A DNA stretch of 64,000 nucleotides, taken from positions 1,140 to 65,139 of the forward strand of contig CAZVXT010000002.1 of assembly GCA_964631145.1 (NCBI GenBank), in the 5' to 3' direction. The DNA comes from an uncultured Candidatus Saccharibacteria bacterium. GTDB taxonomy: Bacteria > Patescibacteriota > Doudnabacteria > UBA920. Of the stretch, positions 1 to 59,613 are shown piece after piece. Within the stretch, counting starts at the first letter, position 1. Every line of letters starts with the position of its first letter. The translations under genes were made by a program, and so were the position numbers. Below the pieces are notes generated by a model that saw only the letters and a list, made by a program, of their open reading frames with translations, was not told the origin of the DNA and did not search any database.

Positions 1-274
1 CAATACCAGAAATTTCTTTAGCCGCATCACAAAAACGTGCGTAATCTGCCTCCTCCGCTGTGTTTGTAGGTCTTTTTGAGAGGTCAGTTGTTCTAATAAC
101 CATCAATGATTTATTTGGAGCGTATTGATCAAGTAATTTCAAAATCCCTACAATTCGTTTTGAATCATATCGGTTGTGTTGCGAGAAATGAAGTCCTCGA
201 TACTTATCGTCAGAGATTCTTTTTGTAATAAACTCTAACGCTTTATTTCCTTGGTTAATATCAATTAATGCCAT
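1..274 (-). CDS. Hypothetical protein, 5' end only. ATG at 272-274 on the minus strand; the ORF runs open to the window start in a frame different from the upstream MTase. Possibly the partner (e.g. nuclease) of the methyltransferases.
   Basis: Manual translation of the reverse complement of 1..274 gives MALIDINQGNKALEFITKRISDDKYRGLHFSQHNRYDSKRIVGILKLLDQYAPNKSL... with no stop. It is not in the ORF track because it runs off the window edge. Confidence 0.3.
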   Translation of the reverse strand, partial: MALIDINQGNKALEFITKRISDDKYRGLHFSQHNRYDSKRIVGILKLLDQYAPNKSLMVIRTTDLSKRPTNTAEEADYARFCDAAKEISGI

Positions 275-1043: not shown

Positions 1044-1045
1044 AA

Positions 1046-1876: not shown

Positions 1877-1880
1877 AAAA

Positions 1881-2087
1881 TTATTTTTTCAATTGCTTTT
1901 TTGCAATTTTCACATTTGAGGTTATTTGCAAAAAAATCTCAAGGTCTTTTTCATTAATTCTCCAATAGCCGACCTTTGATGCTTTTAATTTGCCCTCATG
2001 AATGTAGCGAAATACAGAGCGTTCACTAACACGGAGAACCTCTGCAACTTCTTTTGTATTAAGAAATTTTGTAGTCATATTTTTCAT
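1881..2087 (-). CDS. Excisionase / MerR-type HTH DNA-binding protein (Xis-like).
   Basis: 'LNTKEVAEVLRVSERSVFRYIHEGKLKASKVGYWRINEKDLEIFL' is a classic HTH_17/excisionase-family signature. The likely start is MKNMTTKF (ATG at 2085-2087), preceded by AGGAGG 7 nt upstream; the track ORF starts 15 codons earlier. Confidence 0.6.
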   Translation of the reverse strand: MKNMTTKFLNTKEVAEVLRVSERSVFRYIHEGKLKASKVGYWRINEKDLEIFLQITSNVKIAKKQLKK

Positions 2088-2150
2088 TTGGTCTCCTCCT
2101 TCCATTTTAACTTTTATGAAAACATATGTCAAAGTGTGTCATATTGTTTC

Positions 2151-2179
2151 TTGATTAAATAATACGGTGGAGTTATAAT
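2151..2179 (+). promoter_or_regulatory. Sigma-70-like promoter, TTGATT-17-TATAAT, driving the GC-rich RNA and cargo genes.
   Basis: ttgatt (2151-2156), a 17-nt spacer, then tataat (2174-2179). It is divergent from the Xis-like gene. Confidence 0.4.
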
Positions 2180-2186
2180 AAATATG

Positions 2187-2340
2187 CTACCCATAGAAAT
2201 TATCGTACCCGCATAGGGCAGACGCACGTTTTTTGTGTCCAACATAGTTGTGACCAAAGACGGGCAACTGTCCCTGCCACAACTACGCCCTTGCGGCGAT
2301 AGTCTCTGTGGGTAGCCAGGTCAACGGTTGCCCCTTTTTT
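2187..2340 (+). ncRNA. Candidate structured sRNA or cis-acting leader of ~155 nt. It is GC-rich, has a closing 12-bp stem, and ends in an intrinsic terminator.
   Basis: It begins 7 nt after the -10 element. The 5' gctacccataga pairs with the 3' tctgtgggtagc (G-U compatible), and tagttgtg pairs with cacaacta. It ends with gggcaac...gttgcccc+TTTTTT at 2326-2340. GC content is far above the ~33% surroundings. There is no ORF. Confidence 0.35.
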
Positions 2341-2396
2341 GTAATTAGTTAGGCGTACCGATAACTTGATTAATAATTAAAGTTATTCAAACGTCT

Positions 2397-2900
2397 ATGA
2401 AAAATATAATAAAAAATTTGGCGATTACATTTTTATTTGTCGCCATTATGTATGTTTTGTTTGCCTTTGAGAAAGACCTACTTCTTAAAATCGTATTTAT
2501 TTTATTCTTGATTTTTGTTGCAGATTGGATTTGGAGGGTTGTACAAAAAGAACGCATAAAAAATCCTGATTACGTTGCAAAACAGGTAGCAAAAAGTCTC
2601 AAAAAATGGAGAGAGGATGCTAAGTTTTGGATTGATAGACAGAACCCTGAATATATTCAAGCCAACAACCAATTTAATGAATTTGAATCAATATATTTCA
2701 AACTTTGGGAAAAGTTCCTTCATGACAAAAATAAACGACTTGAAATAGTTAGAGACTGGGCAACCTTTATCGAATCGCAGTTAAAAGCATTGGCTATTAA
2801 CTCAGACGACATAGATCCTGAATCAAAAAAGAAGTATGGCTATTTGCAAATAAGGATTGAGGAAATAAAAAAGCGTTTTGATAAGTTGAATAAGGAATAA
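2397..2900 (+). CDS. Hypothetical membrane protein with two N-terminal transmembrane helices and a cytoplasmic helical domain. It is cargo of the integrative element.
   Basis: 167-aa ORF. The N-terminus 'LAITFLFVAIMYVLFAF...IVFILFLIFVADWIW' is hydrophobic. No recognisable family. Confidence 0.55.
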   Translation: MKNIIKNLAITFLFVAIMYVLFAFEKDLLLKIVFILFLIFVADWIWRVVQKERIKNPDYVAKQVAKSLKKWREDAKFWIDRQNPEYIQANNQFNEFESIYFKLWEKFLHDKNKRLEIVRDWATFIESQLKALAINSDDIDPESKKKYGYLQIRIEEIKKRFDKLNKE

Positions 2901-2956
2901 TTTGCCCCAGGGCAAATGTTCGATAAATACTACGTAAAATAGTAAAATGAAGTGAT

Positions 2957-3841
2957 ATGGGTGCAGATTTAACCAAACCTAAATTAACCATTGCCGAAGT
3001 TTCTATGGGTTATACAAAACCTGTGGACCGTTCGGATCGAATGCTTATTGACCTTAAGCGTCTTTTGATTTTATTAAAAGATGAATCATTTTTTAACACG
3101 ATAGATAATTTGTGGTCAAAATTAAAACTCCCTGAGTTGGCGGCCCAGGAGGACTTGGAAAACAAAGGATTAGTAACCCTACCACATCGAGTTGGTATTA
3201 ATTCAAAATACTTAAATTCTATTTCAGTAGATGCTAGAGAGACGATCGAAAAAGAAGTTTATTCAAAAGTACTAAAGAAGTATGAATTGAGTTTTAATTT
3301 TTATCCTTTTATTGAATTTTATTTACTTTATCACTCACTCCTGAGGTTAAGAGAACCTATTTCGCCAGTACAGCCAAATCCCAAAATGTATAACCTATAC
3401 AAGAAATATCCTCTTGAGTTTTTAAGGAATCCTCACACGACAAGCGATATCAATTTTTTCATAATGAAAGCAAAAACAGCAATGTCTTTACATAAATACA
3501 AAGCAGATAAAGACGACCTTTCGCTATTGCGAGATTTGAAAACTATTCTACAAATTAACAAAAACAAAGAACGTGGCGGTAGTATTGAAAAAATAAATAA
3601 ATTCTTAATAGCCTTAAAATCTATCGAAGTTCATGGTAAGGAAATCGGTAGAGATTGTGATGGTAGAAAAGTCATAAACACATATGCAATGCTATCGGCA
3701 GATTTTATTCCATTGGATTTTGAACTGATACCAGGTAACAACCTTTCAATTTTTAAGAAAAAGCAAAAACTAGAATCTGATAACTTAAGAAAAGCAATAC
3801 AAAGAGCAGAAAAGTTAAAGAATAAATTACTAAAAAATTAA
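2957..3841 (+). CDS. Hypothetical cytoplasmic protein, cargo of the integrative element, with no recognisable domain.
   Basis: 294-aa ORF located 57 nt after the previous gene and on the same strand. A terminator follows at 3873-3898. Confidence 0.55.
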   Translation: MGADLTKPKLTIAEVSMGYTKPVDRSDRMLIDLKRLLILLKDESFFNTIDNLWSKLKLPELAAQEDLENKGLVTLPHRVGINSKYLNSISVDARETIEKEVYSKVLKKYELSFNFYPFIEFYLLYHSLLRLREPISPVQPNPKMYNLYKKYPLEFLRNPHTTSDINFFIMKAKTAMSLHKYKADKDDLSLLRDLKTILQINKNKERGGSIEKINKFLIALKSIEVHGKEIGRDCDGRKVINTYAMLSADFIPLDFELIPGNNLSIFKKKQKLESDNLRKAIQRAEKLKNKLLKN

Positions 3842-3872
3842 GTTCCACTTAGCGAATGAGCCGCTTGATATA

Positions 3873-3898
3873 ACTCCAGTATGAGACTGGAGTTTTTT
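3873..3898 (+). terminator. Intrinsic terminator.
   Basis: actccagt-atgag-actggag followed by TTTTTT. Confidence 0.6.
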
Positions 3899-4189
3899 CT
3901 TGTCTCAAGACGTCGGGTGCAAAGTGGATCTATTCCACTTCCGAGAAAAGGTCAACTGCACCCTGATCTCTATCGGAAGTGAAATAGGTCCATTTTCTAT
4001 TTCACCCAAATGACTAAAAGGTCGAAAAACATATGGTAAGCGATAAAGCACTACAAGAACTAAAAGAAGTATTCCAATTGGAAAAAGGATACATTCCTGA
4101 GGAAAAGGAATTAGTGCTTTATGCTACCAAATTATTAACCCTAATGGACCATGTCTTTAAGCCAATAAAAAAGGACTGGGTGCAGAAAC

Positions 4190-4726
4190 ATGAACAACAA
4201 CAAACAGGAAATAAAACCGAACCGTGATAAGCCTGGATACTCAGGTGGTAACACTTGGATTGATAGATTTGAAAGAAAAACTTTCAATGCAAGCGAATCA
4301 TACAAAAGGTTTGATAAATCCATTCTAAGAAAAAAAGATAAAGCTACTCGATTATTCATTGATAATGAATTTATTGAAAAAGGATATCTTGCTGCTTTAC
4401 CTCATCAAACAATATCCGTGTACATGGCACTTATTAAGCACTGCAACACTAAAACCCAAACAGCATTCCCTTCACATAAAACCCTACAAAGACTAGCTGG
4501 GATAAAAAACAAAAATTCACTGATTGCTAGCATCTCAATTCTTGAGGATCTGAACATAATTAAAGTCATAAGAAGTAAAGGAGGTGTGAATTGTTCGAAT
4601 CACTATGGGTTTGTAAATTCTGATTATTGGATAGGGATTAATCCTGCATATCGGTTCAAAAAATTCAGAATCAAACAGTATCAAAATAATAAAGATGAGT
4701 ATCAAAAAGATGATAGCAATGAGTAA
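4190..4726 (+). CDS. Winged-HTH replication-initiator-like protein (phage/plasmid DnaD/RepA-like HTH_36 type).
   Basis: 'ISVYMALIKHCNTKTQTAFPSHKTLQRLAGIKNKNSLIASISILEDLNIIKV' matches the pattern of phage replisome-organiser / replication-initiator wHTH domains. Confidence 0.45.
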   Translation: MNNNKQEIKPNRDKPGYSGGNTWIDRFERKTFNASESYKRFDKSILRKKDKATRLFIDNEFIEKGYLAALPHQTISVYMALIKHCNTKTQTAFPSHKTLQRLAGIKNKNSLIASISILEDLNIIKVIRSKGGVNCSNHYGFVNSDYWIGINPAYRFKKFRIKQYQNNKDEYQKDDSNE

Positions 4727-4810
4727 CAAAATTGATACTCTAACTAACCTAATGAAACTAACCGATTTAACTAACCGAAGTGCAAAAAATTTGCACTGTT
4801 TGGGAAAAAT

Positions 4811-5059
4811 ATGAGACCCAAATGGCTAGAGGAATATCAGAATAGAATCCTTAAAAAGTTCGAGTATCGAAACTTGAATGGAACTTTTGCTAAGGGAAAC
4901 CCAGGAGGTCCTGGCAGACCAAGAGTTGATTTCCTTAAGCGTGCTGGAATTTACCGCAAAGTACCTCTTGAGCATATGTCTCCTGAAATGAGAGAGATAT
5001 CACTTAGAGCAGAACGTGGTGATTACAAGGCACTCAAAATTATTAAAGACTCGTTGTAA
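4811..5059 (+). CDS. Small phage-like protein with a GNPGGPGRPR motif, possibly terminase small-subunit-like or DNA-binding.
   Basis: 82-aa ORF. A 'KGNPGGPGRPR' motif of this kind occurs in terminase small subunits and other phage DNA-binding proteins. Confidence 0.35.
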   Translation: MRPKWLEEYQNRILKKFEYRNLNGTFAKGNPGGPGRPRVDFLKRAGIYRKVPLEHMSPEMREISLRAERGDYKALKIIKDSL

Positions 5060-5247
5060 AAATTGCCCCAGGGCAACAAATAAACCGAGAAAACCGACAA
5101 ATTCATTCCCCCAAGGAAATCAAAATTTGTTCCCAGGAACAAAAATAAACGGTGAAAACGGACAAAATCACACAAAAGTCACTGGAGTTATGCCAATCCA
5201 CTAGACTTCTATTAAAAATTAAGGCATGTTCGTAATAAGAAAACCCT

Positions 5248-6909
5248 ATGAAAAACCCACAAGATAACACAATCAAATACTTTATTTACGCCCGTAAGTC
5301 GAGCGAGGATAAAGAAAAGCAGGTCGCCTCAATTGGTGACCAATTAGAAGTACTAAACAAGGTCGCAAAGCAAAACAAATTAAACATAGTAGAAATTTAT
5401 GAGGAATCACAATCAGCCAAAGAACCAGGCAGACCACAGTTCAATACCATGCTCGCACGAATTGCTAAAGGCGATGCTAATGGGATACTTTGTTGGAAAC
5501 TTGATCGGTTGGCTCGCAATCCTCTTGATGGTGGGCAAATAAACTGGATGGTGCAGAAAGGCATAATTCAAATTATTAAAACCAACGAGAGAGACTACTT
5601 CCCAAGCGATAACGTTCTCATGATGCAAGTTGAGCTAGGAATGGCGAACCAATACTTGCGAGACCTTTCAACTAACGTAAAGAGAGGTTTAGCAAAAAAG
5701 ATACGAGACGGCTGGCTACCAAGTCTTGCACCGATCGGATACTTAAACGATAGAACTAACGAAAAAGGAAACCGTACAATAATGAAAGACCCCGAAAGGT
5801 TTGATATTGTAAGGAGAATTTGGGACCTTGCACTTACTGGAACTTATACAGTCCCACAGTTATGGGAAATAGCCTACAGGGATTTAGGGCTAAGAACAGT
5901 TCAAAGAAAAAACAGTGGTGGTAGACCAATATCAAAAAGCGGAATGTACTCACTACTAACAAACCCTTTTTATTACGGAATGATTCGCTATCCTGAAAAG
6001 ACTGGCGAATTAAACCAGGGCAAACACGAACCAATGATAACGGTCCAAGAATTCGAGCGTGTTCAAGAGATAATGGGCAAACGTGATGCAATACGACCAC
6101 AAAAAGAAACCTTTGCTTTTACAGGGCTAATGAAGTGCGGAAGCTGTGGTTGCTCGATAACTGCCGAGAGTAAAGTAAAGAAATGCAAAAACGGGAATAG
6201 TCACTACTACACGTACTACCACTGCACTAAAAAGAAAGTAGACATTAAATGCGAGGAAAAGTGCGTTGAGGTTAGAAAGTTAGAAGTTATGTTCAAAGAG
6301 AAACTCGCAGATTTACAGATATCAGACGCTTTCAAAGCCTGGGCAATAAAACACTTGCATGAAGTAAGGACCGTGGAAGCAGACAGTAACAAAGTTGCGG
6401 TGAGCGCAGCCTCAAAGGAATTAACCAGCGTATTGGACCAAATACGAGCGTTATCACTTAACTACATGTCTCCGCAAAACATAAACAGATCAATAATGAC
6501 TGAGAGTGAATACCTTGAAATCAAAAACGATTTATTAAAAAAGAAAGGTGCTGCTGAGAATAGAGTTCAATCAACATCAAATGAATTAGAGTCATGGATG
6601 GAATTAAGTGAAAAAACTTTTAACCTCGCATACTATGCAAGCGTTTGGTTTGAAAATGGAACGAATGAGCAACGTAAAGCAATAATGTCTTGTTTAGGCT
6701 CGAACCTCACACTAAAAGACGGAAAAGTCCAACTATACCTGCATCCTTTCCTAGAAACGCTAATTGAAAACAAAAAATCAGTGAGTGTTGAAACGGTCCA
6801 CGCTCGAACCTCCAAAAAGTCAATGATACAAACACAAAACGCCGCTTTCGGCGACGTTTGTACTACTTGGCTCGGGAGCTGGGATTCGAACCCAGGACCG
6901 ATCGGTTAA
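5248..6909 (+). CDS. Large serine recombinase (phage-type integrase). Its 3' end overlaps tRNA-Asn.
   Basis: The N-terminal resolvase catalytic domain is 'YARKSSEDKEKQ...GDQ' with the catalytic Ser and 'LDRLARN'. A recombinase domain and a zinc ribbon 'CGSCGCS...YYHCTKKK' follow. The last ~14 codons lie within the tRNA sequence. Confidence 0.9.
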   Translation: MKNPQDNTIKYFIYARKSSEDKEKQVASIGDQLEVLNKVAKQNKLNIVEIYEESQSAKEPGRPQFNTMLARIAKGDANGILCWKLDRLARNPLDGGQINWMVQKGIIQIIKTNERDYFPSDNVLMMQVELGMANQYLRDLSTNVKRGLAKKIRDGWLPSLAPIGYLNDRTNEKGNRTIMKDPERFDIVRRIWDLALTGTYTVPQLWEIAYRDLGLRTVQRKNSGGRPISKSGMYSLLTNPFYYGMIRYPEKTGELNQGKHEPMITVQEFERVQEIMGKRDAIRPQKETFAFTGLMKCGSCGCSITAESKVKKCKNGNSHYYTYYHCTKKKVDIKCEEKCVEVRKLEVMFKEKLADLQISDAFKAWAIKHLHEVRTVEADSNKVAVSAASKELTSVLDQIRALSLNYMSPQNINRSIMTESEYLEIKNDLLKKKGAAENRVQSTSNELESWMELSEKTFNLAYYASVWFENGTNEQRKAIMSCLGSNLTLKDGKVQLYLHPFLETLIENKKSVSVETVHARTSKKSMIQTQNAAFGDVCTTWLGSWDSNPGPIG

Positions 6910-6942
6910 CAGCCGATAGCTCTACCGCTGAGCTACTCCCGA
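6868..6942 (-). tRNA. tRNA-Asn (anticodon GTT), 75 nt with encoded CCA.
   Basis: The reverse complement is TCGGGAG-TA-GCTC-AGCGGTA-GAGC-T-ATCGG-CTGTTAA-CCGAT-CGGTC-CTGGG-TTCGAAT-CCCAG-CTCCCGA-G-CCA. This is a canonical cloverleaf with a 7-nt anticodon loop and GTT at positions 34-36. Confidence 0.9.
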
Positions 6943-7067
6943 ATATTCAATTTTTTGATCCTTATTATATTACCAAACCTTTATATATTTTTCAATCCCT
7001 GTTTTAACATATGTAAAAAGTCAAATAAATGATATAATTATAATACAAAAAACAGTGTTGTATCGAA

Positions 7068-8876
7068 ATGAAAAATCAAAATTCATTCAAAAATAAAGAT
7101 ATTTTAAGTGGCGGTTTTACGATAATTGAAGTCGTTATTGGAATCGGTATCCTTATAATTTTACTTGTAGGAGTTTTGGGTGCATATAATTCTTTAACTC
7201 GTTCAACCTTAGGGGCAAGACAGCAGGCAATTATAACTTCATTAGCTGCTCAGAATAGTGAAATTATCAGGAATATGTCATACAGTTCTGTAGGGACTAT
7301 TAACGGTAACCCTAATGGAGTTTTGTCGGATTATAGCAATCCAACTAATGTTACGATTGAAGGTACGGTATATTCAACATATTATGAGGTGGCATATATA
7401 GATGACCCTGCTGATGGTACAATTTTGGCTGGAACAGATCCTGCTCCAAATGACTACAAACAAATAAAGATGTTTGTAAAGAATAATTCTACAAATGTAA
7501 TAACTCCTTTTATTACTAATGTTGCCCCAGCGGGATTAGAAGGACTTAATAATGCAGGGGCTTTAGTTATTAATGTTTTGGATTCTAACGGGCAAGCAGT
7601 TGCTAATGCAAATATTCATATCCAAAGTGTTGGAATATCTCCAGCAATTATTTTGGATCGTCAATCTGATTTAACTGGCAATTGGGTTGAAGTAGGGCTA
7701 CCGGCAGGAGCTAATGCCTATAATATCACTGTGACAAAAAATGGTTATTCTACTGATAAAACATACCCAATTACCTTAGGTAATCCTAATCCTACTAAAC
7801 CAGATTCAACAGTTGTCAATGGTCAGATAACTCAAATCAGCTTTGCTATAGATACGTTGGGTAATTTGACAATAAAGACTTTAAATCAAACTTGCCAGGC
7901 GATTAATGGAATAAATTTGAACGTTGCCGGATCAAAAATTATTGGTAGTACACCAACAGTTTTGAAATATAGCAATAATTTTACTTCATCATCCGGACAA
8001 GTTGCGTTAAATAATATTGAATGGGATACTTATACACCCACTTTATTAACTGGTCAAAGTTATATGGTTTATGGCTCATCGCCAATCCAGCAAATTACTG
8101 TTTTACCAAGTGCTTCCCAAACTTTTTCTCTAATATTAGGACCGGTGTCTACAAATAGTTTGCTAGTAATTGTAAAAGATTCGGCTACGAAGACTGCTTT
8201 AGAAGGAGCTTCGGTGAGATTGACTAATAGTAGTCCTAGCTACGATCAATCTAAAGTAACCGGCGGTAGTATTTGGCAGCAAACAGACTGGACAGGTGGT
8301 TTAGGTCAAGATAATTTTACCGATTCTACAAAGTACAAAACTCAAGATACTAATATTACCACTACTGGGGTGCCTAATGCATTGCGTCTTCAGCAGCTTA
8401 GTGGAAATTATGTTGCAAGTGGTTGGTTAGAATCGTCCAGTTTTGATACTGGTGCCTCAAGTAATTATACAACTATATCTTGGTCACCAGCATCACAAGT
8501 GGCAGGGGCAGTTGTTAAGTTCCAATTAGCTAGTAATAATGATAATACTACATGGAGCTATAAAGGTCCTGACGGAACCTCAGGTTCTTATTATACAATT
8601 GCGGGATCAAATATTGCTGCAGTTCACGACGGTGATCGTTATATTCGTTATAAGGTTTATCTATCAACTTCAGATACTACTAAGACACCTGTGTTAACAA
8701 GTATGGTGATAAATTATGTTTCTGGATGTTTTACTCCAGGACAAGTTATGTTTCCAAGCTTAACAGCTAATAATAATTATTCTGTTAATATTTCTTTACC
8801 TGGATACCAGGATAAAACAGTTAATAATTTAAATATTTCTGGAAATCAAACATTAGAAGTATTGCTTTCACAATGA
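7068..8876 (+). CDS. Large type IV pilin-like / pseudopilin protein with a prepilin-type N-terminus.
   Basis: The N-terminus is 'LSGG|FTIIEVVIGIGILIILLVGVLG': a class III signal, Gly followed by F at +1, Glu at +5, and a hydrophobic helix. It has 602 aa and is Thr/Ser/Asn-rich. Confidence 0.6.
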   Translation: MKNQNSFKNKDILSGGFTIIEVVIGIGILIILLVGVLGAYNSLTRSTLGARQQAIITSLAAQNSEIIRNMSYSSVGTINGNPNGVLSDYSNPTNVTIEGTVYSTYYEVAYIDDPADGTILAGTDPAPNDYKQIKMFVKNNSTNVITPFITNVAPAGLEGLNNAGALVINVLDSNGQAVANANIHIQSVGISPAIILDRQSDLTGNWVEVGLPAGANAYNITVTKNGYSTDKTYPITLGNPNPTKPDSTVVNGQITQISFAIDTLGNLTIKTLNQTCQAINGINLNVAGSKIIGSTPTVLKYSNNFTSSSGQVALNNIEWDTYTPTLLTGQSYMVYGSSPIQQITVLPSASQTFSLILGPVSTNSLLVIVKDSATKTALEGASVRLTNSSPSYDQSKVTGGSIWQQTDWTGGLGQDNFTDSTKYKTQDTNITTTGVPNALRLQQLSGNYVASGWLESSSFDTGASSNYTTISWSPASQVAGAVVKFQLASNNDNTTWSYKGPDGTSGSYYTIAGSNIAAVHDGDRYIRYKVYLSTSDTTKTPVLTSMVINYVSGCFTPGQVMFPSLTANNNYSVNISLPGYQDKTVNNLNISGNQTLEVLLSQ

Positions 8877-9505
8877 TAAAAAATAAAACTCGGCAAATAT
8901 TTAACAAAGGGTTTACTTTAATCGATGTGGTTATATCGGTTGCAATTTTTACTATGATTATTTCGGGAATCATTGCATTAACCTCATCGATATTAGTTGA
9001 TAGTAGTCGTCAAGCCATGACCTTATCTAATTCTGATCAGTCTCGTAAGTTAAGCTTTCAGATTATGCAAGAACTACGAAACGCTAACTATGGCAATGAT
9101 GGTTCTTATCCAATAGCTGGTGCTGATGATCAACAATTAATATTTTTTAGCAATATTGATAGTGATGTGCAAGTAGAGCGTATAAGATATTATTTATCTA
9201 ACGGAAAACTATATAGAGGGGTTGTAGAGCCAACAGGAACTCCACCAACTTATAATACAGCAAATGAAGTTTCTAGAGTTGTACAAAATGATGTAGCAAA
9301 CGGAAGTGTCCCTATATTTTATTATTATCCAGATACATACACTGGTACTGGTAGTGCGTTATCACAGCCTGTCAACTATACAAAAGTGAAATTAATAACT
9401 TTAAATTTACGTGTTTATACCAAAGTGGCAAAAAGCGCTTCGGATTATTTTACAATTCAAGCAAGTACAGCAATACGTAGTTTGAAAAGCAATATAGGAA
9501 GCTAA
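8873..9505 (+). CDS. Pilin-like (minor pilin / pseudopilin) protein.
   Basis: 'NKG|FTLIDVVISVAIFTMIISGIIAL' is a prepilin-like N-terminus with an acidic residue at +5 (D). It overlaps the upstream gene by 4 nt. Confidence 0.55.
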   Translation: MIKNKTRQIFNKGFTLIDVVISVAIFTMIISGIIALTSSILVDSSRQAMTLSNSDQSRKLSFQIMQELRNANYGNDGSYPIAGADDQQLIFFSNIDSDVQVERIRYYLSNGKLYRGVVEPTGTPPTYNTANEVSRVVQNDVANGSVPIFYYYPDTYTGTGSALSQPVNYTKVKLITLNLRVYTKVAKSASDYFTIQASTAIRSLKSNIGS

Positions 9506-10926
9506 TGAATATATTATTAAGCAAAAAATTTAAGCAAAATGGTTCTATTATAGTTTTTGAAGTGTTAATTATCTTTGTGTTTTCTGTAGTGATGCTGGCG
9601 GTAATGGCTATGGCAGCAGGGCAATTTAGAATTTTACGTTCGACTGCAGTTAAAGAACAAGCTTTTCAGATAGCCGAATCTGGTATTAATTATTACCAAT
9701 GGCATTTGGCTCATTTTCCTAATGACTTTAAAGATGGTACTGGGGCTGCTCCTTCTAATCAAACTAATTTTACAAACCCTTGTTATTTGCATTCTTATCA
9801 AGACAAAGATACTAACGCAACAATTGGTTACTATTGTTTAGAAATTACACCACCATTAGTAGGATCTACTATAGTTACTATTAAATCCACTGCTTATGCG
9901 GTATCTAATCCAAAAATTAAAAGAGTTATCACTTCAAGATATGGAATTCCATCTTTGGCTAAATATTCATTCTTAACTAATAGTGATGTCTGGATAGGTA
10001 ATACAGAATCTGTAGTTGGTGCTATGCATTCGAACGGAGGTATAAGATTTGATGGCTCATCAACCGGACCTACAACATCTGCTAAAACCACTTACACATG
10101 TCAGTCTTACCATGGGTGTAGTCCGGCTAGCACTAAAGCCGGGATATGGGGGAATGCTAACCAGGCAACTAAAAATTTGTGGTCTTATCCAGTGCCTAAT
10201 GTTGACTTTTCTGCTATGACTTCCAACTTAGCTTCTTTAAAAACTTCTGCTCAAAATGGGGGTTTGTACTTAGCTCCCTCTAATGCTCAAGGCTATTCTT
10301 TAGTATTTAATTCAAATGGAACTATCTCTGTTTATAAAGTAACTTCATTACGATCTACACCTACAGGTTATGATGTAAATAATGTTGCTCATAATGAAGA
10401 TTTGGATTATAACGCTCGTACCTTACTTTCTCAGGCTAGTATTCCAAGTAATGGAGTAATTTATATCGAAGATCAGGTCTGGGTGGAAGGAACCGTTGCA
10501 GGTCGTGCTATAGTCGCAGCCGCAAAATTGCCATACAATAGTTCTACTGCACCAAGTATTATAATTCCAAATAATATTAATTATACTGTTAAAGATGGTA
10601 CTGTATCGTTAGGATTGTTGGCTCAAAATAATATTTTAGTAAGTTATTATTCGCCCAATATTTTAAATATTGACGCTGCTTTAATTGCACAAAATGGCAG
10701 TGTGCAAAGATTTTACTATGCTAATGATGTGAAAACATCACTTACCACATATGGTACAGTTGCAAGTTATGGAACTTGGACATGGAATTGGTCCAGCGGT
10801 AATTCTATAGTTTCTGGTTATCAGTCTACTGTGACGACTTATGATTCTAATTTGTTGTACGCTCCACCTCCAAGTTTTCCTTTAGCTTCTAGTAGTTATC
10901 AGCAAATTAGTTGGGTTAGTAATTAA
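9505..10926 (+). CDS. Pilin-like large protein with an atypical prepilin N-terminus.
   Basis: 'QNGSIIVFEVLIIFVFSVVMLAVMAMAAGQ' is a G-hydrophobic-E pattern with the Glu at +6 rather than +5. It is translationally coupled to the previous gene by a 1-nt overlap. Confidence 0.45.
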   Translation: MNILLSKKFKQNGSIIVFEVLIIFVFSVVMLAVMAMAAGQFRILRSTAVKEQAFQIAESGINYYQWHLAHFPNDFKDGTGAAPSNQTNFTNPCYLHSYQDKDTNATIGYYCLEITPPLVGSTIVTIKSTAYAVSNPKIKRVITSRYGIPSLAKYSFLTNSDVWIGNTESVVGAMHSNGGIRFDGSSTGPTTSAKTTYTCQSYHGCSPASTKAGIWGNANQATKNLWSYPVPNVDFSAMTSNLASLKTSAQNGGLYLAPSNAQGYSLVFNSNGTISVYKVTSLRSTPTGYDVNNVAHNEDLDYNARTLLSQASIPSNGVIYIEDQVWVEGTVAGRAIVAAAKLPYNSSTAPSIIIPNNINYTVKDGTVSLGLLAQNNILVSYYSPNILNIDAALIAQNGSVQRFYYANDVKTSLTTYGTVASYGTWTWNWSSGNSIVSGYQSTVTTYDSNLLYAPPPSFPLASSSYQQISWVSN

Positions 10927-10931
10927 AATAT

Positions 10932-11318
10932 ATGAACAAAATTATCAGTTTAGCATTTGTTATTTTTATGTTCCCGAGCATAGCGTACGCTACGGCAAGA
11001 GTGCCAAGTGGACAAATGCCAAATTTACCACCATTGCAACAAATTGATTTTGGGGTGCAACCTAATTACAGTAATAATATTCAAACTGAGGATCAGGCTG
11101 AACAAAACTCTAGTACACAAACCCATTCTACAGAACAGTCATTTGATAAGCAAAATTTAGACAATGAAGGGGTGGCTGATGTCAAACAAGTGGTTGTGCC
11201 CAAAACAGAAACAAGTTCTCATAATTGGTTGACCTATTTAATTATACTCTTTTTATTAATGATTATAGGATTGGCTACCTTTTTGGTTTTTAAAAACTAT
11301 TCTAAAAATATTAAATAA
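10932..11318 (+). CDS. Secreted protein with a Sec signal peptide and a C-terminal TM anchor followed by a basic tail; pilus-cluster associated.
   Basis: The N-terminus is 'IISLAFVIFMFPSIAYA'. The C-terminus is 'WLTYLIILFLLMIIGLATFLVFKNYSKNIK'. Confidence 0.5.
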   Translation: MNKIISLAFVIFMFPSIAYATARVPSGQMPNLPPLQQIDFGVQPNYSNNIQTEDQAEQNSSTQTHSTEQSFDKQNLDNEGVADVKQVVVPKTETSSHNWLTYLIILFLLMIIGLATFLVFKNYSKNIK

Positions 11319-11358
11319 GTCTACTATAGAAACCATTTTATTAGTCAACTTATAAGTT

Positions 11359-11655
11359 ATGGTAATTATCAAGTTAAAATTTTATAAAATTATAATGCTA
11401 AGTTTGATATTTGTTGCAGGGCAATTATGGTTAAAACCTGTTTTAGCAGATAGTTCAGATAATATTCGATCACAACAAGCAAGTAGAGTGATAATAGATG
11501 AGACTGTAACTTCTCAACAGCAAGATGGCTCAACTAATATTGCAACTTTAATTTTTTCTGTGATTGGATCTTTGGGTTTGTTTGGCATTGCCTTTTTGGC
11601 AATTAGAAGTTTTTATAATAATTCTAAGCAGAATAAAAAACCAAATGATAATTAA
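11359..11655 (+). CDS. Small secreted protein with a C-terminal TM anchor and basic tail.
   Basis: A signal peptide is followed by 'LADSSD...', and the C-terminus is 'IATLIFSVIGSLGLFGIAFLAIRSFYNNSKQNKK'. Confidence 0.45.
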   Translation: MVIIKLKFYKIIMLSLIFVAGQLWLKPVLADSSDNIRSQQASRVIIDETVTSQQQDGSTNIATLIFSVIGSLGLFGIAFLAIRSFYNNSKQNKKPNDN

Positions 11656-12934
11656 GAACTTTATTCAATTAGCTACAACACCTGTCAGAAAGCAGGCTTT
11701 GTTAATTGCAGAAGCTGGATTAGAGGCAATTAACACGACCAGAATAATGCAAAGAGATTTTTCTTACGATGCTAAATCGGACACTTTGTATATTAAAGGA
11801 CAAAAGTTTGATTTATCAAAGTATAAGAGAGTTTTAGTAGTTGGCGGTGGTAAAGTGGTTGCAGAAGCTGCTGTGATTATCGAACAACAATTGGGTAGTA
11901 GATTGTCTGCGGGGTTGGTAATAGACTTAGTTGCTAGCAAGACTTCTATTATACAAGGCAGAATTGGCACTCATCCTTTGCCAAGTTCGGCAAATGTCTC
12001 CGCAACTCAAGAGATGATTTCTATGCTCTCGGAGTGCACGGAAAATGATTTGGTAATAGCAGTAATTGCGGGTGGTGGTAGTAGTTTGATGTGTGCTCCC
12101 GCAGAAATAACTTTAGATGAAGAGCGCCAGTTAACCAAAACTTTAATGCATAGCGGCGCAAGCATTATAGAAATTAATACTGTTCGGAAGCATATGAGTT
12201 TGATAAAAGGTGGTGGTTTGGCTAAGTTTGCCCATCCAGCTACAGTCATTGGTTTGATATTTAGCGACGTGCCTGGGGATGATTTAACAGAAGTGGCAAG
12301 TGGACCAACTTTTAAAGACGATTCGACTATAAATGACGCCATGGCAATATTGCAAAAATATAGTATTTTGCAAAAATGCAGTATGGATAGTTGTGGCTTA
12401 ACAGAAAGTCCAAAAGCTAGTCACTATTTTGATAAAGTTACTAATATTATGTTTTGTTCTGCCAAAGATGCTTTAAATGCAATGGTGGAGAAGTCAAAAA
12501 ATTTGGGATTGAAACCACGAATATGGCAAACCGCTTTTGAAGGCGAAGCTTCAGTCTTAGCTAAAACTATTTTGGATCAAGCAAAGCCAGGAGAATGTTT
12601 GCTTGCCGCTGGTGAAAGCGTAGTAACCATACCACCAGATGCAGTAGGGGGCAGTGGGGGGCGTAATCAAGAAATGGCTTTGTCGGCAATGACTTACATT
12701 GATGATAATGCGGTGTTTGCCGCGATAGCCTCTGATGGACATGATAATAGCGATGTTGCTGGGGCGATAGTAGATCTGCATACCAAGCGTCTAGCTCGAA
12801 AAACCGGAGTTAATGTGCAAGAATATCTAAAGAGGCACGATGAATATCAGCTAATGCTAGATTTATCTGCCAGCTTAGTTACTGGTTTGACCGGATCCAA
12901 TGTTTCAGATTTTATAATTTGTATTAAAGAATAA
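11645..12934 (+). CDS. Glycerate 2-kinase (MOFRL family).
   Basis: 'VLVVGGGKVVAEAA' and the C-terminal 'GGSGGRNQEMALSA' signature are characteristic of the MOFRL/DUF4147 glycerate kinase family. The start was chosen at ATG 11645 to avoid a 90-nt overlap with the upstream gene; the track starts at 11564. Confidence 0.65.
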   Translation: MIIKNFIQLATTPVRKQALLIAEAGLEAINTTRIMQRDFSYDAKSDTLYIKGQKFDLSKYKRVLVVGGGKVVAEAAVIIEQQLGSRLSAGLVIDLVASKTSIIQGRIGTHPLPSSANVSATQEMISMLSECTENDLVIAVIAGGGSSLMCAPAEITLDEERQLTKTLMHSGASIIEINTVRKHMSLIKGGGLAKFAHPATVIGLIFSDVPGDDLTEVASGPTFKDDSTINDAMAILQKYSILQKCSMDSCGLTESPKASHYFDKVTNIMFCSAKDALNAMVEKSKNLGLKPRIWQTAFEGEASVLAKTILDQAKPGECLLAAGESVVTIPPDAVGGSGGRNQEMALSAMTYIDDNAVFAAIASDGHDNSDVAGAIVDLHTKRLARKTGVNVQEYLKRHDEYQLMLDLSASLVTGLTGSNVSDFIICIKE

Positions 12935-12937
12935 TCT

Positions 12938-13900
12938 ATGAATATTACAACTTACGAGCTTTCTAAAGCTGATAATCTTTTTCTTAAAAATAATTTAAAA
13001 GGATCTGTTCTTCGTACTAATCAAAATGCTCTTATTAAATTAATTAAGCCAGATTTGTGGTCTGAAGGATTAATTGTTCATAGTGGCTCTCGAATTGGAC
13101 TTGATGTGCTTAAAAACTTACCTAATTTAAAATTCATATTAACCAGAACAGCTGGGGTTGATCATATCGATGAAAAAGCTTGTCAAAAATTAGGAATAAA
13201 GTTATTACATTTACCTGGTCAAAACGCACGCTCTGTAGCAGAGTTTGCAATGGGTTTGATTTTGACCACTTCTCGTCAGATCTTTGCCTCAGCAGCAGCT
13301 TTAAAAAAGCAATTAAAATTTCCAAAAGCAGTATATTACGGACATGAACTGCAAGGTAAGACTTTGGGTGTTGTGGGCACTGGTGCGATAGGAAAGAATC
13401 TTATTACTATCGCAAAGCTTGGCTTTGGTATGAATGTTATTGCTTTTGATGTTATGCAAGACAAGCAGGCAGAAAAAGACTTGGGTTTTGAGTACGTTAC
13501 ATTACCTGATTTGCAATCACAAGCAGACATAATTAGCTTGCATGCTCCATTAACCAAGCAAACTGCTGGTATGGTAAATGATGCATTTATTAATGCTTGC
13601 AAAAATGGATTGATTTTAATTAACACCGCCCGCGGCGGTTTGGTTAAAAGCTCTGCTATATTGAAGGCATTGCAATCCAAGAAAATGATTGGTTATGGTA
13701 CCGATGTTTTTGGAGAAGAATGTGGTCTTCGAGGACAAAAAATCACAGCTGCACAAAAAGCTCAGTTAGCTTTAGATAAAAAGTTGATCCGCCACCCTCT
13801 TGTTGTTGCTACTCCTCATATGGCGCATGCGACTGTTGACTCTAATGACCGCATAAATCAGCAAACAGTCAGCTTAATTTTAGATATAATTAAAAGCTAA
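12938..13900 (+). CDS. D-isomer-specific 2-hydroxyacid dehydrogenase (hydroxypyruvate/glycerate dehydrogenase-like).
   Basis: Contains the NAD-binding motif 'GKTLGVVGTGAIGKNL', 'DIISLHAPLTKQTAGMVN', and catalytic-region motifs of the D-2-hydroxyacid dehydrogenase family. Confidence 0.8.
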   Translation: MNITTYELSKADNLFLKNNLKGSVLRTNQNALIKLIKPDLWSEGLIVHSGSRIGLDVLKNLPNLKFILTRTAGVDHIDEKACQKLGIKLLHLPGQNARSVAEFAMGLILTTSRQIFASAAALKKQLKFPKAVYYGHELQGKTLGVVGTGAIGKNLITIAKLGFGMNVIAFDVMQDKQAEKDLGFEYVTLPDLQSQADIISLHAPLTKQTAGMVNDAFINACKNGLILINTARGGLVKSSAILKALQSKKMIGYGTDVFGEECGLRGQKITAAQKAQLALDKKLIRHPLVVATPHMAHATVDSNDRINQQTVSLILDIIKS

Positions 13901-14060
13901 GTTTTGCATATATCTTAACAATGCCCACAATAAATTAATACTCTAAAATATTTTTGTGGATAAGGCTTGTCGTACAATATTTAAGGCGCTTAAACTTTAA
14001 TGTTTAAGTGCTTTTTACTTTATTGAGTTCTACTATATCTAGCGTTATAATTTTAATAGT

Positions 14061-14076
14061 CACACTATATTTGGTG
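14061..14076 (+). promoter_or_regulatory. Candidate NrdR box (16-bp palindrome) ~25 nt upstream of nrdR.
   Basis: cACACTATATTTGGTGg matches the published NrdR-box consensus acaCwAtATaTwGtgt. Confidence 0.4.
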
Positions 14077-14100
14077 GCTGACAATATTAATAAAAATAAA

Positions 14101-14547
14101 ATGAAGTGCCCAAAATGCCTAAATTCGGACACAAAAGTTGTGGACTCTCGTCCTGTAGAAGACTTTGGAGCAATTCGTAGGCGTAGAGAATGCGAAAAAT
14201 GCGGTTTTAGATTTTCCACTTACGAACAAATCGAAATTTTAGATTTATCAGTACAAAAACGAAATGGCACCTGTCAGCCATATTCTAGAGATAAATTAGA
14301 AAGAGGTTTGCGAAGAGCTTTTCAAAAGCGAAATATAACAGATTTTATGTTTCGCAAAACAATCTCCGAAATAGAACAGGAAATTCAAAAGAAGTCTGGT
14401 TCTGGTCAAATCGCTAGTGATATTATAGGCGATATTGTAATGAAGACTATTAGGAAAGTAGATAAGGTGGCTTATATTAGGTTTGCCAGCGTTTATAGAC
14501 AATTTGAAGATATTGAAGAATTTAAACAGGCATTGTCTAAGTTATAA
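14101..14547 (+). CDS. nrdR: Transcriptional repressor NrdR.
   Basis: Contains the 'MKCPKCLNSDTKVVDSRPVEDFGAIRRRRECEKCGFRFSTYE' zinc ribbon followed by an ATP-cone. The start was set at MKCP (ATG 14101). Confidence 0.85.
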   Translation: MKCPKCLNSDTKVVDSRPVEDFGAIRRRRECEKCGFRFSTYEQIEILDLSVQKRNGTCQPYSRDKLERGLRRAFQKRNITDFMFRKTISEIEQEIQKKSGSGQIASDIIGDIVMKTIRKVDKVAYIRFASVYRQFEDIEEFKQALSKL

Positions 14548-14587
14548 TCTAATCAATTTAAAGAATTATTATTAAAAACCAAAATAC

Positions 14588-17500
14588 ATGTTTTATACCA
14601 AGCATACTCAAATCAAGAAGCGTAGCGGCGACGTTGTATCATTTGACCCTCAAAAAATTTATATTGCTGTCAGTAGAGCATATCAAGCTGTAACTAAACA
14701 AGAAAACCAACCTCTGTATCAAGAGGTAACCTTGGCTGTGTTATTAGAACTGGATCAAAATTATGCAGATAGATTGCCTAGTGTTGAAGATATTCAAAAT
14801 ATAGTAGAAAAGGAACTTATGGCAAAAGGCTTGTTCGATGTCGCGAAAGACTATATTATTTATCGCTACGAGCATGCTAAGCAGCGCGAAGAAAAAAAGA
14901 TTGAAACTCTAGAAAAATTAGTAACCATTGGTCTAACCATTACAAAGCGTAATGGCAATAAAGAAGTATTTTCTTCTGACAAGGTCCGCAAAACTTTAAG
15001 CCACTTTATCGGTGGTTATGAAAAAGAAATTGATTTAGACGCTGTTGTTACTCAGCTTGGTATGGAAATTTATGATGATATTACTACTGCCGAAATCGAA
15101 CGCGCTTTAATAATGGTGCTTCGCTCTTATGCCGAGCTAGACCCTGCGTATTCTTATGTTGCTGCAAGGGCTTTACTAAACAGAGCTTATAAGCAAGTTA
15201 TTGGTTTTGATAAAATTGACTTTAATAATTTGGATAATCAATTGCGCGATCAGCTTAAATTGAGTATTCAAAACGGTGTTGCTATTGGTAAACTTGATCC
15301 AAAATTGCTGCTTTTTGATATTGATAGATTGGCTGCTGCACTAAACCGTGAACGCGATAATTACCATACTTACTTAAGCGCTCAAACATTAATTGATCGT
15401 TACTTTATTTCTAATCCTGTAACTAAAGACTTGTATGAAGTGCCACAGTTGTTTTGGATGCGTGTAGCAATGGGATTGTCTTTAAATGAAGCAAATAAAG
15501 AAGAAGCTGCTATCCAATTTTATAGCATTATGTCTACTTTGCATTTTGTTCCATCTACCCCAACTTTATTTCATGCAGGAACTACTAGACCACAGCTTTC
15601 ATCTTGTTATTTAACAACCATTGAAGATTCTTTAGATCATATTTTTAAGTCTATTAGTGACAATGCACAGTTATCTAAGTGGAGTGGTGGTATTGGCAAT
15701 GACTGGACCAAAGTACGCGGTACTGGATCTTTGATTAAAGGTACAGGCGTAGAAAGTCAGGGTACTATTCCATTTTTGAAAATTGCTAACGATACTACAG
15801 TTGCAATTAACCGTAGCGGTAAGCGCCGTGGTGCAACTTGTGCTTACATGGAAACTTGGCACTATGACATTGAAGACTTTTTAGAACTTCGTAAAAACAC
15901 TGGAGACGAACGTCGCCGTACTCACGATATGAATACTGCTAATTGGGTGCCAGATTTATTTATCAAGCGTGTAAAGAGCGATGGCATGTGGACTTTATTT
16001 AGTCCTGACGAAACTCCAGATTTGCATGAACTTTATGGACAGGCATTTGAACGTCGTTACGAAGCTTACGAGCAAATGGTTGATGAAGGAAAGATTCGTA
16101 CTTTCAAGCGTATGCCGGCTAAAGATTTGTGGCGCAAAATGCTAACAATGCTTTTCGAAACTGGTCATCCATGGATTACTTTTAAAGACCCTTCTAATGT
16201 CCGCAGTCCTCAAGACCATTGTGGTGTGGTGCATAGCTCTAATTTGTGTACAGAAATTACACTTAATACTTCTGCGGAAGAAACTGCAGTTTGTAATTTA
16301 GGTTCTGTTAACTTGGCAAAGCATATTACCGGCGGTAAATTAGACATGGCGCGTTTACAATACACTGTTGCCACTGCAATGCGTATGCTTGATAATGTTA
16401 TTGACCTTAATTTTTATCCAACTATAGAAGCTCGTAATTCTAACATGAAGCACCGCCCTGTAGGTTTGGGTGTTATGGGCTTTCATGATGCGCTTTATAT
16501 GCAAGGTATTAATTTTGACAGCGAAGCGATGCTAGAATTTGCAGATCGTTGTGGTGAAGCTGTGGCTTATTATTCTATTTTGGGATCTTCTCAATTAGCT
16601 GCAGAACGTGGGAGTTATGCATCATTCCGTGGCAGTAAGTGGGATAGAGGATTGTTGCCATTGGATACTTTAGACTTGTATGAAAAAGAACGTGGTGTCC
16701 CAATTGATGTACCTCGCACTTCAACACTAGATTGGAGTATTGTCAGAGAATCTATTGCTAAATATGGTATGCGTAATTCTAACTGTATGGCGATTGCTCC
16801 AACAGCAACTATTTCTAATATTGCAGGAAGTATTCCTTCTATCGAGCCTATTTATAAAAATATTTATGTTAAGGCTAATCAAAGCGGAGATTTTATTGTT
16901 GTAAATGAATATTTAATTAATGATATGAAAGCTGCTGGTTTATGGAATCCTCAAATGCTTGCCATGCTTAAATATAATGATGGTAATTTGGCGGCTATCC
17001 CGGATATACCTCAGGAGCTTCGAGATAAATATAAAGAAGTGTTTCAAATAGACCCTCGTTGGTTGGTTAAAGCTGCTGCTTACCGCGGTAAGTGGATTGA
17101 CCAAAGCCAATCACTTAACATCTTTTATGGTGGCAAGAGTGGTAAGGATATTAATGATATTTACTTGTACGCTTGGGATATGGGCGTGAAAACTACTTAT
17201 TACTTGCGTACCATGGCGGCAAGCCAAGTAGAAAAGTCTACGGTTAATACTTCCGAATTTGGTAATACTCATTTACGCGGACAAAATATAGAAGTAGAAA
17301 CCATGGTTGTGACAGCTACAGAAAATTCTGCTCAAATAGTTGATGTTGTAGAAACTGTATCAGCGAGCTCTACAAATCCAGAACCTCAGATTCAAAAGAC
17401 TGTAGAAAAATATGAAGTTCCTGCTGTAACAGAGCAGCAGTCCACTGGTAATAATACTATCAAGGTAGAACCATCATTAAATGCTGGGATGGTAAATGGG

Positions 17501-51575: not shown

Positions 51576-51580
51576 AAAAA

Positions 51581-52276: not shown

Positions 52277-52277
52277 A

Positions 52278-54269: not shown

Positions 54270-54478
54270 GAACTTTAAAAACATAACAATAAAAACCGCT
54301 GATCATATAATCAGCGGTTTTTCTTATAAAAGATTTTTTAGATTGAAGAGTATATTTTTTGAATTTTCAATCCTTAAAATTGATTTTAAATTATATAAAA
54401 TTTAATTTGGGTTTTACACATCTAATATGGTATAATTATTTTAAGTTTTGAGATAAATTTTACCAAAATTTTAAGACC

Positions 54479-58597: not shown

Positions 58598-58600
58598 ATT

Positions 58601-59605: not shown

Positions 59606-59613
59606 ATTTTGTT

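Follow-up and report, generated by a model that had tools for sequence, protein, structure and literature searches.

Three linked prepilin-like proteins, one of them modelled like ComZ, as probable core minor pilins of a type IV pilus in Patescibacteria

What are prepilin-like proteins of up to 602 amino acids (aa) doing side by side in the genome of a patescibacterium? [quoted passage not shown] To our knowledge, nothing is known about the composition of their pilus tips beyond a few oral Saccharibacteria. The question is raised by a cluster of five open reading frames (ORFs), P1-P5, at positions 7068-11655 of a 64,000-nucleotide (nt) stretch of contig CAZVXT010000002.1, which we call the window. 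Our answer is that P1, P2 and P3 are very probably core minor pilins, which would form the priming and tip complex of a type IV pilus in an ultrasmall, monoderm CPR bacterium, probably a relative of Doudnabacteria. The case is built on sequence features, homology, synteny with pil genes and fold similarity, from which cleavage, location at the tip, order of assembly and ligand are inferred.

The five ORFs are co-directional on the plus strand and lie exactly where a preliminary description of this DNA had placed them (Table 1). P1, P2 and P3 overlap consecutively, P1 and P2 by 4 nt (ATGA) and P2 and P3 by 1 nt (TAATG), while 5 nt separate P3 from P4 and 40 nt separate P4 from P5. The GC content of the window is about 35% and stays flat across the P1-P5 region.

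Table 1. Genes and predicted domains of the locus and of the adjoining element, in window coordinates (AF2, AlphaFold2 model; H, helix; E, strand; Ig, immunoglobulin; pLDDT, predicted local distance difference test score).
Feature	Position	Strand	Description
P1	7068-8876	+	602 aa ORF; assigned as giant PilV/GspI/ComGE-type minor pilin
P1 pilin domain (aa 17-152)	7116..7523	+	AF2: H19-68, E93-97, E100-111, E130-139, E145-152; long alpha1 and four-stranded sheet
P1 three Ig-like beta-sandwiches (aa 165-405)	7560..8282	+	CarboxypepD_reg/CnaB/transthyretin-type; PF13620 and Foldseek
P1 C-terminal jelly-roll-like domain (aa 439-602)	8382..8873	+	pLDDT ~90, highest model confidence
P2	8873-9505	+	210 aa ORF; assigned as PilW/GspJ/ComGF-type minor pilin
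P3	9505-10926	+	473 aa ORF; assigned as PilX/GspK/ComZ-type capping minor pilin
P3 pilin domain (aa 14-147)	9544..9945	+	AF2: H12-70, E93-100, E105-115, E124-132, E135-147
P3 beta-rich insert (aa 148-445)	9946..10839	+	predicted beta-solenoid, ComZ/ice-binding-protein type; many invariant residues
P3 C-terminal strand (aa 464-473)	10894..10923	+	AF2 strand E466-472; invariant Y465, W470
P4	10932-11318	+	128 aa ORF; conserved small accessory protein
P5	11359-11655	+	98 aa ORF; orphan small protein
Two N6/N4 DNA methyltransferases	261-1043 and 1046-1876	-	
HTH_17 excisionase-like gene	1881-2132	-	
Large serine recombinase	5248-6909		Resolvase, Recombinase and Zn-ribbon domains
tRNA-Asn	6868-6942	-	3' half overlaps 3' end of the recombinase gene

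The prepilin-like N-termini that had drawn attention to the cluster are borne out. P1 starts with MKNQNSFKNKDILSGG|FTIIEVV, giving a leader of aa 1-16 that ends in GG at Gly16 and a mature start FTIIE with Glu5. P2 starts with MIKNKTRQIFNKG|FTLIDVV, the leader (aa 1-13) ending in KG at Gly13, and has Asp, not Glu, at +5. P3 starts with MNILLSKKFKQNG|SIIVFEVL, with a leader of aa 1-13 that ends in NG at Gly13; it lacks Glu5 and has Glu at +6. Hydropathy shows one hydrophobic segment only in each of the three proteins, immediately after the cleavage Gly. A strict pilin N-terminus pattern, run in six frames over all ORFs of at least 40 aa in the window, matched P1 and P2 only. Within the families, the +5 residue is E in 61 of the 61 scored P1 homologs, and 59 of the scored P2 homologs have E there and 2 have D; we regard Asp5 of P2 as a rare conservative variant. 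In the P3 family Gly13 is invariant (78/78 species-level homologs) and +5 is occupied by Phe or Tyr. The Glu of P3, described earlier as unusually shifted, does stand at +6, but it is not a displaced Glu5: Glu is found there in 87 of the 120 closest homologs, with Gln or Asn in 13, and in only 10 of the 78 species-level homologs, most of which have Leu (the commonest), Val, Thr or Ala. It is thus a trait of a close subclade, and a register-shifted functional Glu5 as a property of the P3 family was rejected, the +6 Glu being missing from most species-level homologs. Capping subunits such as PilX, GspK and ComGG are characteristically without Glu5 and have no subunit above them to neutralise (PMC12040237; bioRxiv 10.64898/2026.02.12.705559).

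The identity of the three proteins as PilV-, PilW- and PilX-type pilins follows from matches to hidden Markov models (HMMs) at the family level together with the usual I-J-K gene order. P1 itself matches CarboxypepD_reg (PF13620, E 1.6e-11), scores 10.0 bits with N_methyl, below the cut-off of 21.2, and with its N-terminal helix only gives weak NCBIfam matches to PilV (E 0.0052) and ComGE (E 0.0078). P2 reaches 18.4 bits with N_methyl, again below the cut-off of 21.2, and matches ComGF with E 5.8e-5 over residues 11-73 only (23.3 bits vs a cut-off of 80); further sub-threshold NCBIfam matches are to ComGE, GspI and GspJ. For P3, PilX_N (PF14341) aligns over its full model length with residues 13-62 at 22.5 bits (E 1.1e-4; cut-off 25.5). 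Among the relatives, counted at E<=0.01, N_methyl (PF07963) is found in 26 of 30 P1 relatives (best 7.5e-8) and CarboxypepD_reg in all 30; TIGR02532 in 36 of 40 P2 relatives (best 5e-8), ComGF in 33 and GspJ in 19; and PilX_N in 24 of 37 P3 relatives (best 4.5e-8). Some P2 relatives also match the HpsB and HpsC pseudopilin models weakly. We conclude that P1, P2 and P3 are PilV/GspI/ComGE-like, PilW/GspJ/ComGF-like and PilX/GspK-like, respectively, as judged from these profiles; the assignments are solid at the family level only, and that of P1 as PilV-type comes mainly from gene order. Profile searches of P1 and P2 against the PDB matched pilin N-termini only.

The families are large. Full-length homologs number more than 735 for P1 and more than 2,973 for P3, at 55-70% identity (P1: 55-66%), and a P3 profile search gave 346 clusters (50% identity) at E<=1e-30 and 1,438 at E<=1e-3. 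A P3 relative is present in at least 570 species-representative genomes, the named lineages being Doudna-, Staskawicz-, Magasanik-, Zambryski- and Adlerbacteria and Paceibacterota. Many module-bearing genomes (L004-L083 in our numbering of loci) have record titles that read "uncultured Candidatus Saccharibacteria bacterium" or "uncultured Gammaproteobacteria bacterium" (TPA assemblies), which are probably automatic mislabels.

Synteny ties the module to the pilus machinery. We compared 80 related Patescibacteria loci, with fetched flanks of up to 10 kb on each side. The order P1-P2-P3 is kept in about 70 of them, with P1 always first and P2 always second, and the remainder are truncated contigs. 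In 13 loci the module adjoins pilB and pilC: it is inserted as pilB-pilC-[P1-P2-P3-P4]-pilM-pilN-pilO in six (L023, L035, L051, L052, L053 and L060), follows pilB-C-M-N-O in three (L002, L003 and L010) and follows pilB-pilC in four (L024, L028, L036 and L082). No extra canonical pilin gene is found in the flanks of 78 of the 80 loci. In L060 the region 3' of the pilB...pilO operon (11949-16567) encodes a canonical pilin of 147 aa, a candidate major pilin, and four more pilin-like proteins of 204, 176, 235 and 409 aa, which make up another, small set and of which the last lacks Glu5. One machinery is thus accompanied by two different sets of minor pilins in at least one patescibacterium, a situation that recalls the cyanobacterial Com and EPS sets. 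Several of these operons have further companions. After pilO, L023, L035, L051, L053 and L060 have a gene for a conserved transmembrane protein (about 100 aa) as well as one or two that resemble response regulators, with N-termini like MSKKIVLVEDD... Several of those loci have large ORFs (535-683 aa) in front of pilB, some of which start with a clearly hydrophobic stretch and may code for sensor kinases, and F-type ATP synthase genes lie just beyond the pil operon in L023 and L035.

The predicted structure of P3 points in the same direction. The AF2 model runs from a helix through four strands into a beta-rich block of about 300 aa, followed by a PPP linker and a last strand. The linker prolines P454-456 are invariant, linker and final strand together are the most conserved segments of P3, and Cys199 is invariant as well. 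With Foldseek, the sole PDB matches at E<=0.001 are three chains of 6qvi, the competence pilin ComZ of Thermus thermophilus (E 1.1e-7 to 5.7e-7, probability 1.0). Ice-binding-protein beta-helices rank next at E ~0.1, Thermus PilA2 appears lower down, and other beta-helix proteins are listed at E >3 only. In ComZ an ice-binding-protein-like solenoid interrupts a GspK-like pilin domain ahead of its last strand, and the protein was itself compared with ice-binding proteins, as the P3 model is here; PilFind misses it, it binds both DNA and PilA2, and a place at the pilus tip has been argued for it (PMC6561018). The succession of elements in the P3 model fits this layout, and we propose that the final strand of P3 rejoins the pilin sheet as it does in ComZ. 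We found no paper linking ComZ with Patescibacteria; where the two terms occur together, it is in unrelated work on gut, rumen and soil microbiomes. For P3, a depolymerase of the tailspike or pectate-lyase type was also considered and rejected, since no tailspike or pectate lyase is among the 50 best PDB matches listed.

P1 was modelled by AF2 with a pLDDT of 75.5 as a pilin domain followed by an Ig-like stalk and a jelly-roll-like head. Its best Foldseek matches are Gram-positive adhesin and pilin stalks, namely TIE 6fwv (6e-10), PitA, SpaA and BcpA. Weaker ones are factor V/VIII and the large sialidase 1eut, which we take to be lectin-type modules. Cys276 and Cys554 are both invariant, which suggests a disulfide that would tie the second Ig-like domain to the C-terminal domain and give a folded-back head, not a straight stalk. 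CPR genomes are enriched in a membrane thiol-disulfide oxidoreductase that was proposed to serve pilins (PMC6744442). The C-terminus of P1 (...NQTLEVLLSQ) has no LPXTG motif and no hydrophobic segment. P1 as a sortase substrate was rejected for want of the LPXTG motif, and only its Ig-like stalk domains resemble the Gram-positive proteins. The P1 family is modular, with lengths of 809-821 aa in L002 and L010, 1091 aa in L052 and 1322 aa in L063; the last locus carries two tandem copies of the complete P1-P2-P3 module. In L002 and L003 the P1 gene (L002 6899-9328) encodes an additional Ice_binding (PF11999) beta-helix domain. Such "ice-binding" beta-helices recur on several surface proteins of these bacteria, because one is also present in a 688-aa Ice_binding and SpaA_2 surface protein that is encoded, with a sortase fragment, about 1-4 kb upstream of the P1 homolog on the opposite strand in the locus of P0020.

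The two small proteins behind P3 bear out the preliminary description in having a signal-like N-terminus and a C-terminal transmembrane segment, and one of the two, P4, is a conserved partner. Hydropathy and alignment give P4 a Sec-type signal peptide, a variable low-complexity linker, a C-terminal transmembrane helix and a basic tail, with a short conserved motif near the N-terminus, [FV]P..(S/P)LQPxP....PN[IY]SGN[IV]N. A P4-like gene follows P3 in about 55 of the 80 loci, mostly within about 40 nt, and P4 is 365 aa long in L052. P4 matches no Pfam or NCBIfam family; by its recurrence we count it as the conserved fourth component of the module. P5 shares the architecture (signal-like N-terminus, C-terminal transmembrane segment, basic tail) and is an orphan, with no homolog but itself among 5.8 billion proteins; its membership of the pilus system is uncertain. 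L007 encodes a 92-aa protein with a C-terminal transmembrane segment in the P5 slot, with no sequence similarity to P5. Directly 3' of the module, at 11645-12934, lies a glycerate kinase-like gene (DUF4147 and MOFRL), which, by the gene call of L001, shares 11 nt with the end of P5; such a gene is also found 3' of the module in L007, L014, L019 and the locus of P0020.

How strongly the module is conserved was compared in 12 genomes that carry P1, P2, P3, PilB and PilC. The mean pairwise identity is 59.9% for P3, 58.0% for PilB, 51.3% for P1, 41.9% for PilC and 41.4% for P2. Conservation of P1 and P3 is uniform along their length, with no hypervariable domain; the accessory domains match or exceed the pilin cores in conservation, the C-terminal domain of P1 equalling its pilin core. 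Conservation so high and uniform is unexpected for surface tip proteins; it speaks for a universal ligand or a strict structural role and argues against a host-specific adhesin. Of the "pilus-tip adhesin or minor-pilin complexes" first suggested for this cluster, the minor-pilin and tip complex is thus supported by the family HMMs, the PilV-PilW-PilX order, the linkage to pil operons and the ComZ-like model of P3, while an adhesin is not established.

From these data we propose the following model. P1-P3 would be inserted into the membrane via their N-terminal class III signals, and a prepilin peptidase whose gene lies elsewhere would cleave them behind the conserved Gly. They would assemble on the PilC/PilM-N-O platform as a short right-handed helical complex, which would prime the polymerisation of a major pilin, also encoded elsewhere, and finish at the pilus tip, as we infer from GspIJK, ComGE-GF-GG and PilA2-PilA3-ComZ. 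P3 would be the first subunit in and the topmost cap or plug, because it lacks Glu5 and carries a bulky ComZ-like beta-solenoid in a pilin fold, and P1 and P2 would sit beneath it. With the Ig-like stalk and jelly-roll-like head that P1 adds beside P3, the joint tip would be unusually large. P4 may act as a membrane-tethered accessory factor.

Several known systems resemble this arrangement in part. The Thermus set PilA2-PilA3-ComZ (PMC6561018) has the same order of a GspI-like, a GspJ-like and a large GspK-like protein, and ComZ has the inserted ice-binding-protein-like solenoid that is predicted for P3, lacks recognisable prepilin motifs and was likewise proposed to sit at the tip. In contrast, P3 and ComZ are not detectably similar in sequence, Thermus, a diderm, has a secretin whereas the organism here is a monoderm CPR bacterium, and PilA2 is a small pilin where its counterpart P1 has 602 aa with Ig-like and jelly-roll-like domains. 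ComZ binds DNA and its GspI-like partner pilin and is required for transformation (PMC6561018), while P3 is likened to it by its predicted fold. The cyanobacterial PilX-Com and PilX-EPS proteins (bioRxiv 10.64898/2026.02.12.705559) carry a triangular beta-solenoid between the penultimate and last PilX strands, strictly co-occur with a cognate PilV and were proposed as a "tip plug" replacing PilY1. They belong to another phylum, a sequence-level link is absent from the comparison, their sets include a FimT-type subunit that this module lacks, and neither a giant PilV nor a P4 partner was described for them. The generic core complexes GspH-I-J-K of type II secretion systems (T2SS), FimU-PilV-PilW-PilX of type IVa pili and ComGD-GE-GF-GG of monoderms (PMC12040237) agree in having a cap without Glu5 while the other subunits keep it, and in operon organisation, HMM similarity and linkage to pilB/pilC/pilMNO. 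Unlike these, the module comprises only three subunits and lacks a GspH/FimU/ComGD type; two of its pilins are 2-4 times the usual size, and its conservation is far above that usual for minor pilins. In the Patescibacteria pilus of TM7x, small major pilins are combined with the minor pilins PilV1/PilW1/PilX1 and PilX2, of which the large PilX-type proteins have accessory domains, lack a predicted PilD signal and were proposed to be tip proteins (PMC11623550). Compared by description, those accessory domains are a jelly roll (PilX1) and a beta-propeller with seven blades (PilX2), whereas here P3 has a predicted beta-solenoid and P1 an Ig-like stalk and jelly roll; ComZ is not mentioned in the TM7x work. 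Finally, PilY1/PilC of Proteobacteria is a large tip protein that cooperates with core minor pilins and was proposed as plug, adhesin and sensor. It is no pilin, has no class III signal or alpha1 helix and contains a beta-propeller, whereas here the bulky domains are fused to pilin folds.

A number of points weigh against our interpretation. A search for pilB, pilC and pilD, suggested in the preliminary description, found none of them, nor pilM/N/O, pilT or a major pilin, in the 64 kb window or in the roughly 10 kb to the left of it; since the window holds no pil machinery genes, the link of the module to the machinery rests on relatives, 13 of which have pilB and pilC next to it. The module contains no fourth pilin of the GspH/FimU/FimT/ComGD type, and every pilin model scores the window's own P1-P3 under the curated Pfam and NCBIfam cut-offs. 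The AF2 model of P3 has a pLDDT of 74.7, falling below 55 for most of aa 150-240, and its global TM-score to ComZ is about 0.21 at a root-mean-square deviation of about 19 Å. The P3 family profile, built from 37 relatives, finds no PDB chain at E<=10, ComZ included. The Ig-like stalk and jelly-roll-like head of P1 are a classic adhesin layout.

What could such a tip bind? Most likely something universal, and not a host-specific receptor, because the distal domains are as conserved as PilB across class-level lineages. We tentatively prefer the capture of extracellular DNA for uptake, as ComZ does in vitro, because of the similarity to ComZ, the universal conservation, the reliance of CPR bacteria on scavenged nucleotides and the detection of ComEA in only 31% of CPR genomes (PMC6744442). 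Second to this, adhesion to a common envelope polymer is possible, suggested by the adhesin-like layout of P1, the precedents in Saccharibacteria and the solenoid PilX of cyanobacterial motility sets. Two literature findings speak against the DNA part: pili of Saccharibacteria are essential for growth while competence is dispensable (PMC11665869), and the solenoid also occurs in the cyanobacterial motility (EPS) sets, where a structural "plug" role was proposed (bioRxiv 10.64898/2026.02.12.705559). The most far-reaching version, that P1-P2-P3-P4 are a conserved head for the capture of double-stranded DNA on the Patescibacteria pilus, with a solenoid cap, a giant PilV and P4 as an unrecognised membrane-tethered assembly or docking factor, we consider rather doubtful as a whole. 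If true, it would supply the "alternative DNA-binding mechanism" that has been inferred for the approximately 69% of CPR genomes without ComEA and feed nucleotide scavenging.

The alternative that survives best leaves the tip complex as it is and changes its purpose to host-cell attachment (episymbiosis) or surface motility, with the head and stalk of P1 or the solenoid of P3 binding a glycan or protein of the host envelope. This is possible, if less likely than not: TM7x needs PilX2, a large minor pilin, to bind its host, its pilin mutants are unimpaired in competence and PilX1 has a lectin-like jelly roll (PMC11623550), the PilX-EPS solenoids of cyanobacteria were proposed to be adhesins (bioRxiv 10.64898/2026.02.12.705559), the essential pili and dispensable competence of Saccharibacteria (PMC11665869) fit as well, and so do the resemblance of the P1 model to Gram-positive adhesin stalks and its weaker lectin-type readings. 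Yet conservation at the level of PilB, with no variable domain, from Doudna- and Staskawicz- to Magasanik-, Zambryski- and Adlerbacteria would require a ligand common to all hosts, and the nearest solved structure to P3 is a DNA-binding competence pilin.

A short T2SS-like pseudopilus is improbable, in which the module, working with PilB, PilC and PilMNO, would act as a piston to display or push out the large head and no long fibre of major pilin would be made. P1-P3 do match T2SS pseudopilin models (GspI, GspJ) besides pilin models, and a further canonical pilin is missing from nearly all flanks, even inside the pilB...pilO operon. On the other side, CPR genomes encode abundant pilins elsewhere and pili have been seen on CPR cells (PMC6744442, PMC11623550), the major-pilin candidate of L060 stands just 3' of the same operon, and a monoderm has no outer membrane to be crossed. 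It is very unlikely that the hydrophobic N-termini are plain signal anchors and P1 and P3 membrane-anchored surface proteins unrelated to pilus assembly. Besides the sub-threshold HMM scores, one could cite for this that P3-type proteins of Thermus and TM7x are missed as PilD substrates by predictors (PMC6561018, PMC11623550), and that no A24 prepilin peptidase (PilD) was found in the window or the loci by a scan for GxGD[VFIL]K in proteins with several transmembrane segments, a pattern too crude to show that it is absent; PilD is reported to be widespread in CPR (PMC6744442). Such anchors would leave unexplained the invariant cleavage-site Gly of the P3 homologs, the GFTxxE of the P1 and P2 families, the fixed linkage of three genes with insertion between pilC and pilM, and the pilin-type helix and sheet in the models of both P1 and P3. 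That the cluster is a recently acquired island, carried as cargo by an integrative element at the tRNA-Asn about 125 nt away, whose 3' half overlaps the end of the serine recombinase gene, can practically be dismissed, as the element lies on the opposite side of the tRNA (261-6909, past the left window edge), GC is flat, independent assemblies break exactly at the tRNA junction and leave the module with the right-hand chromosome, and the module is vertically conserved in hundreds of genomes with no adjoining tRNA or element.

Large minor pilins with accessory domains were already known from Saccharibacteria, and ComZ-type PilX proteins from Thermus and cyanobacteria. New are the ComZ-type architecture in CPR bacteria other than Saccharibacteria, the giant PilV partner, the P4 component and the conservation at the level of PilB. 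The range of solenoid-bearing PilX proteins would now reach the CPR, which suggests that they may be an ancient alternative to PilY1. The module is a concrete candidate for the tip in at least 570 species-level genomes, tied to the pilB...pilO operon in some lineages, and with three defined proteins the question how CPR bacteria seize DNA or hosts becomes testable.

The neighbourhood of the tRNA and insertion site, which the preliminary description had pointed to, is real as a distance and incidental in meaning, because relatives have no tRNA beside the module and GC is flat. The recombinase, the two methyltransferases and the HTH_17 gene are, by their domains, an integrative element at tRNA-Asn that spans 261-6942 and runs past the left window edge. 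In window positions 1-7100 the 3' half of tRNA-Asn does not recur, nor is there a convincing direct repeat that could mark the attachment sites of the element. Between 6850 and 12000, promoter and terminator signals were no more numerous than shuffling leads one to expect, which makes that scan uninformative. An ORF of 411 aa, possibly the restriction enzyme, follows in other samples past the window edge.

Elsewhere in the window, 51207-63434 holds a cluster resembling the type IV secretion system of Patescibacteria. Among its products are a P-loop ATPase of the VirB4/TraG type at 61590-63434 (TraG P-loop 8.4e-25, plus a CagE_TrbE_VirB match), a 1372-aa protein with several hydrophobic stretches at 54479-58597 and, at 51581-54269 and 58601-61587, several proteins that match no Pfam family. 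A tmRNA with the tag AFSNATLQPALA is encoded at 29354-29740 on the minus strand. Two further genes concern the cell surface, a 602-aa DUF11-repeat surface protein at 43216-45024 (+) and a LysM and CHAP peptidoglycan hydrolase at 45872-47095 (-).

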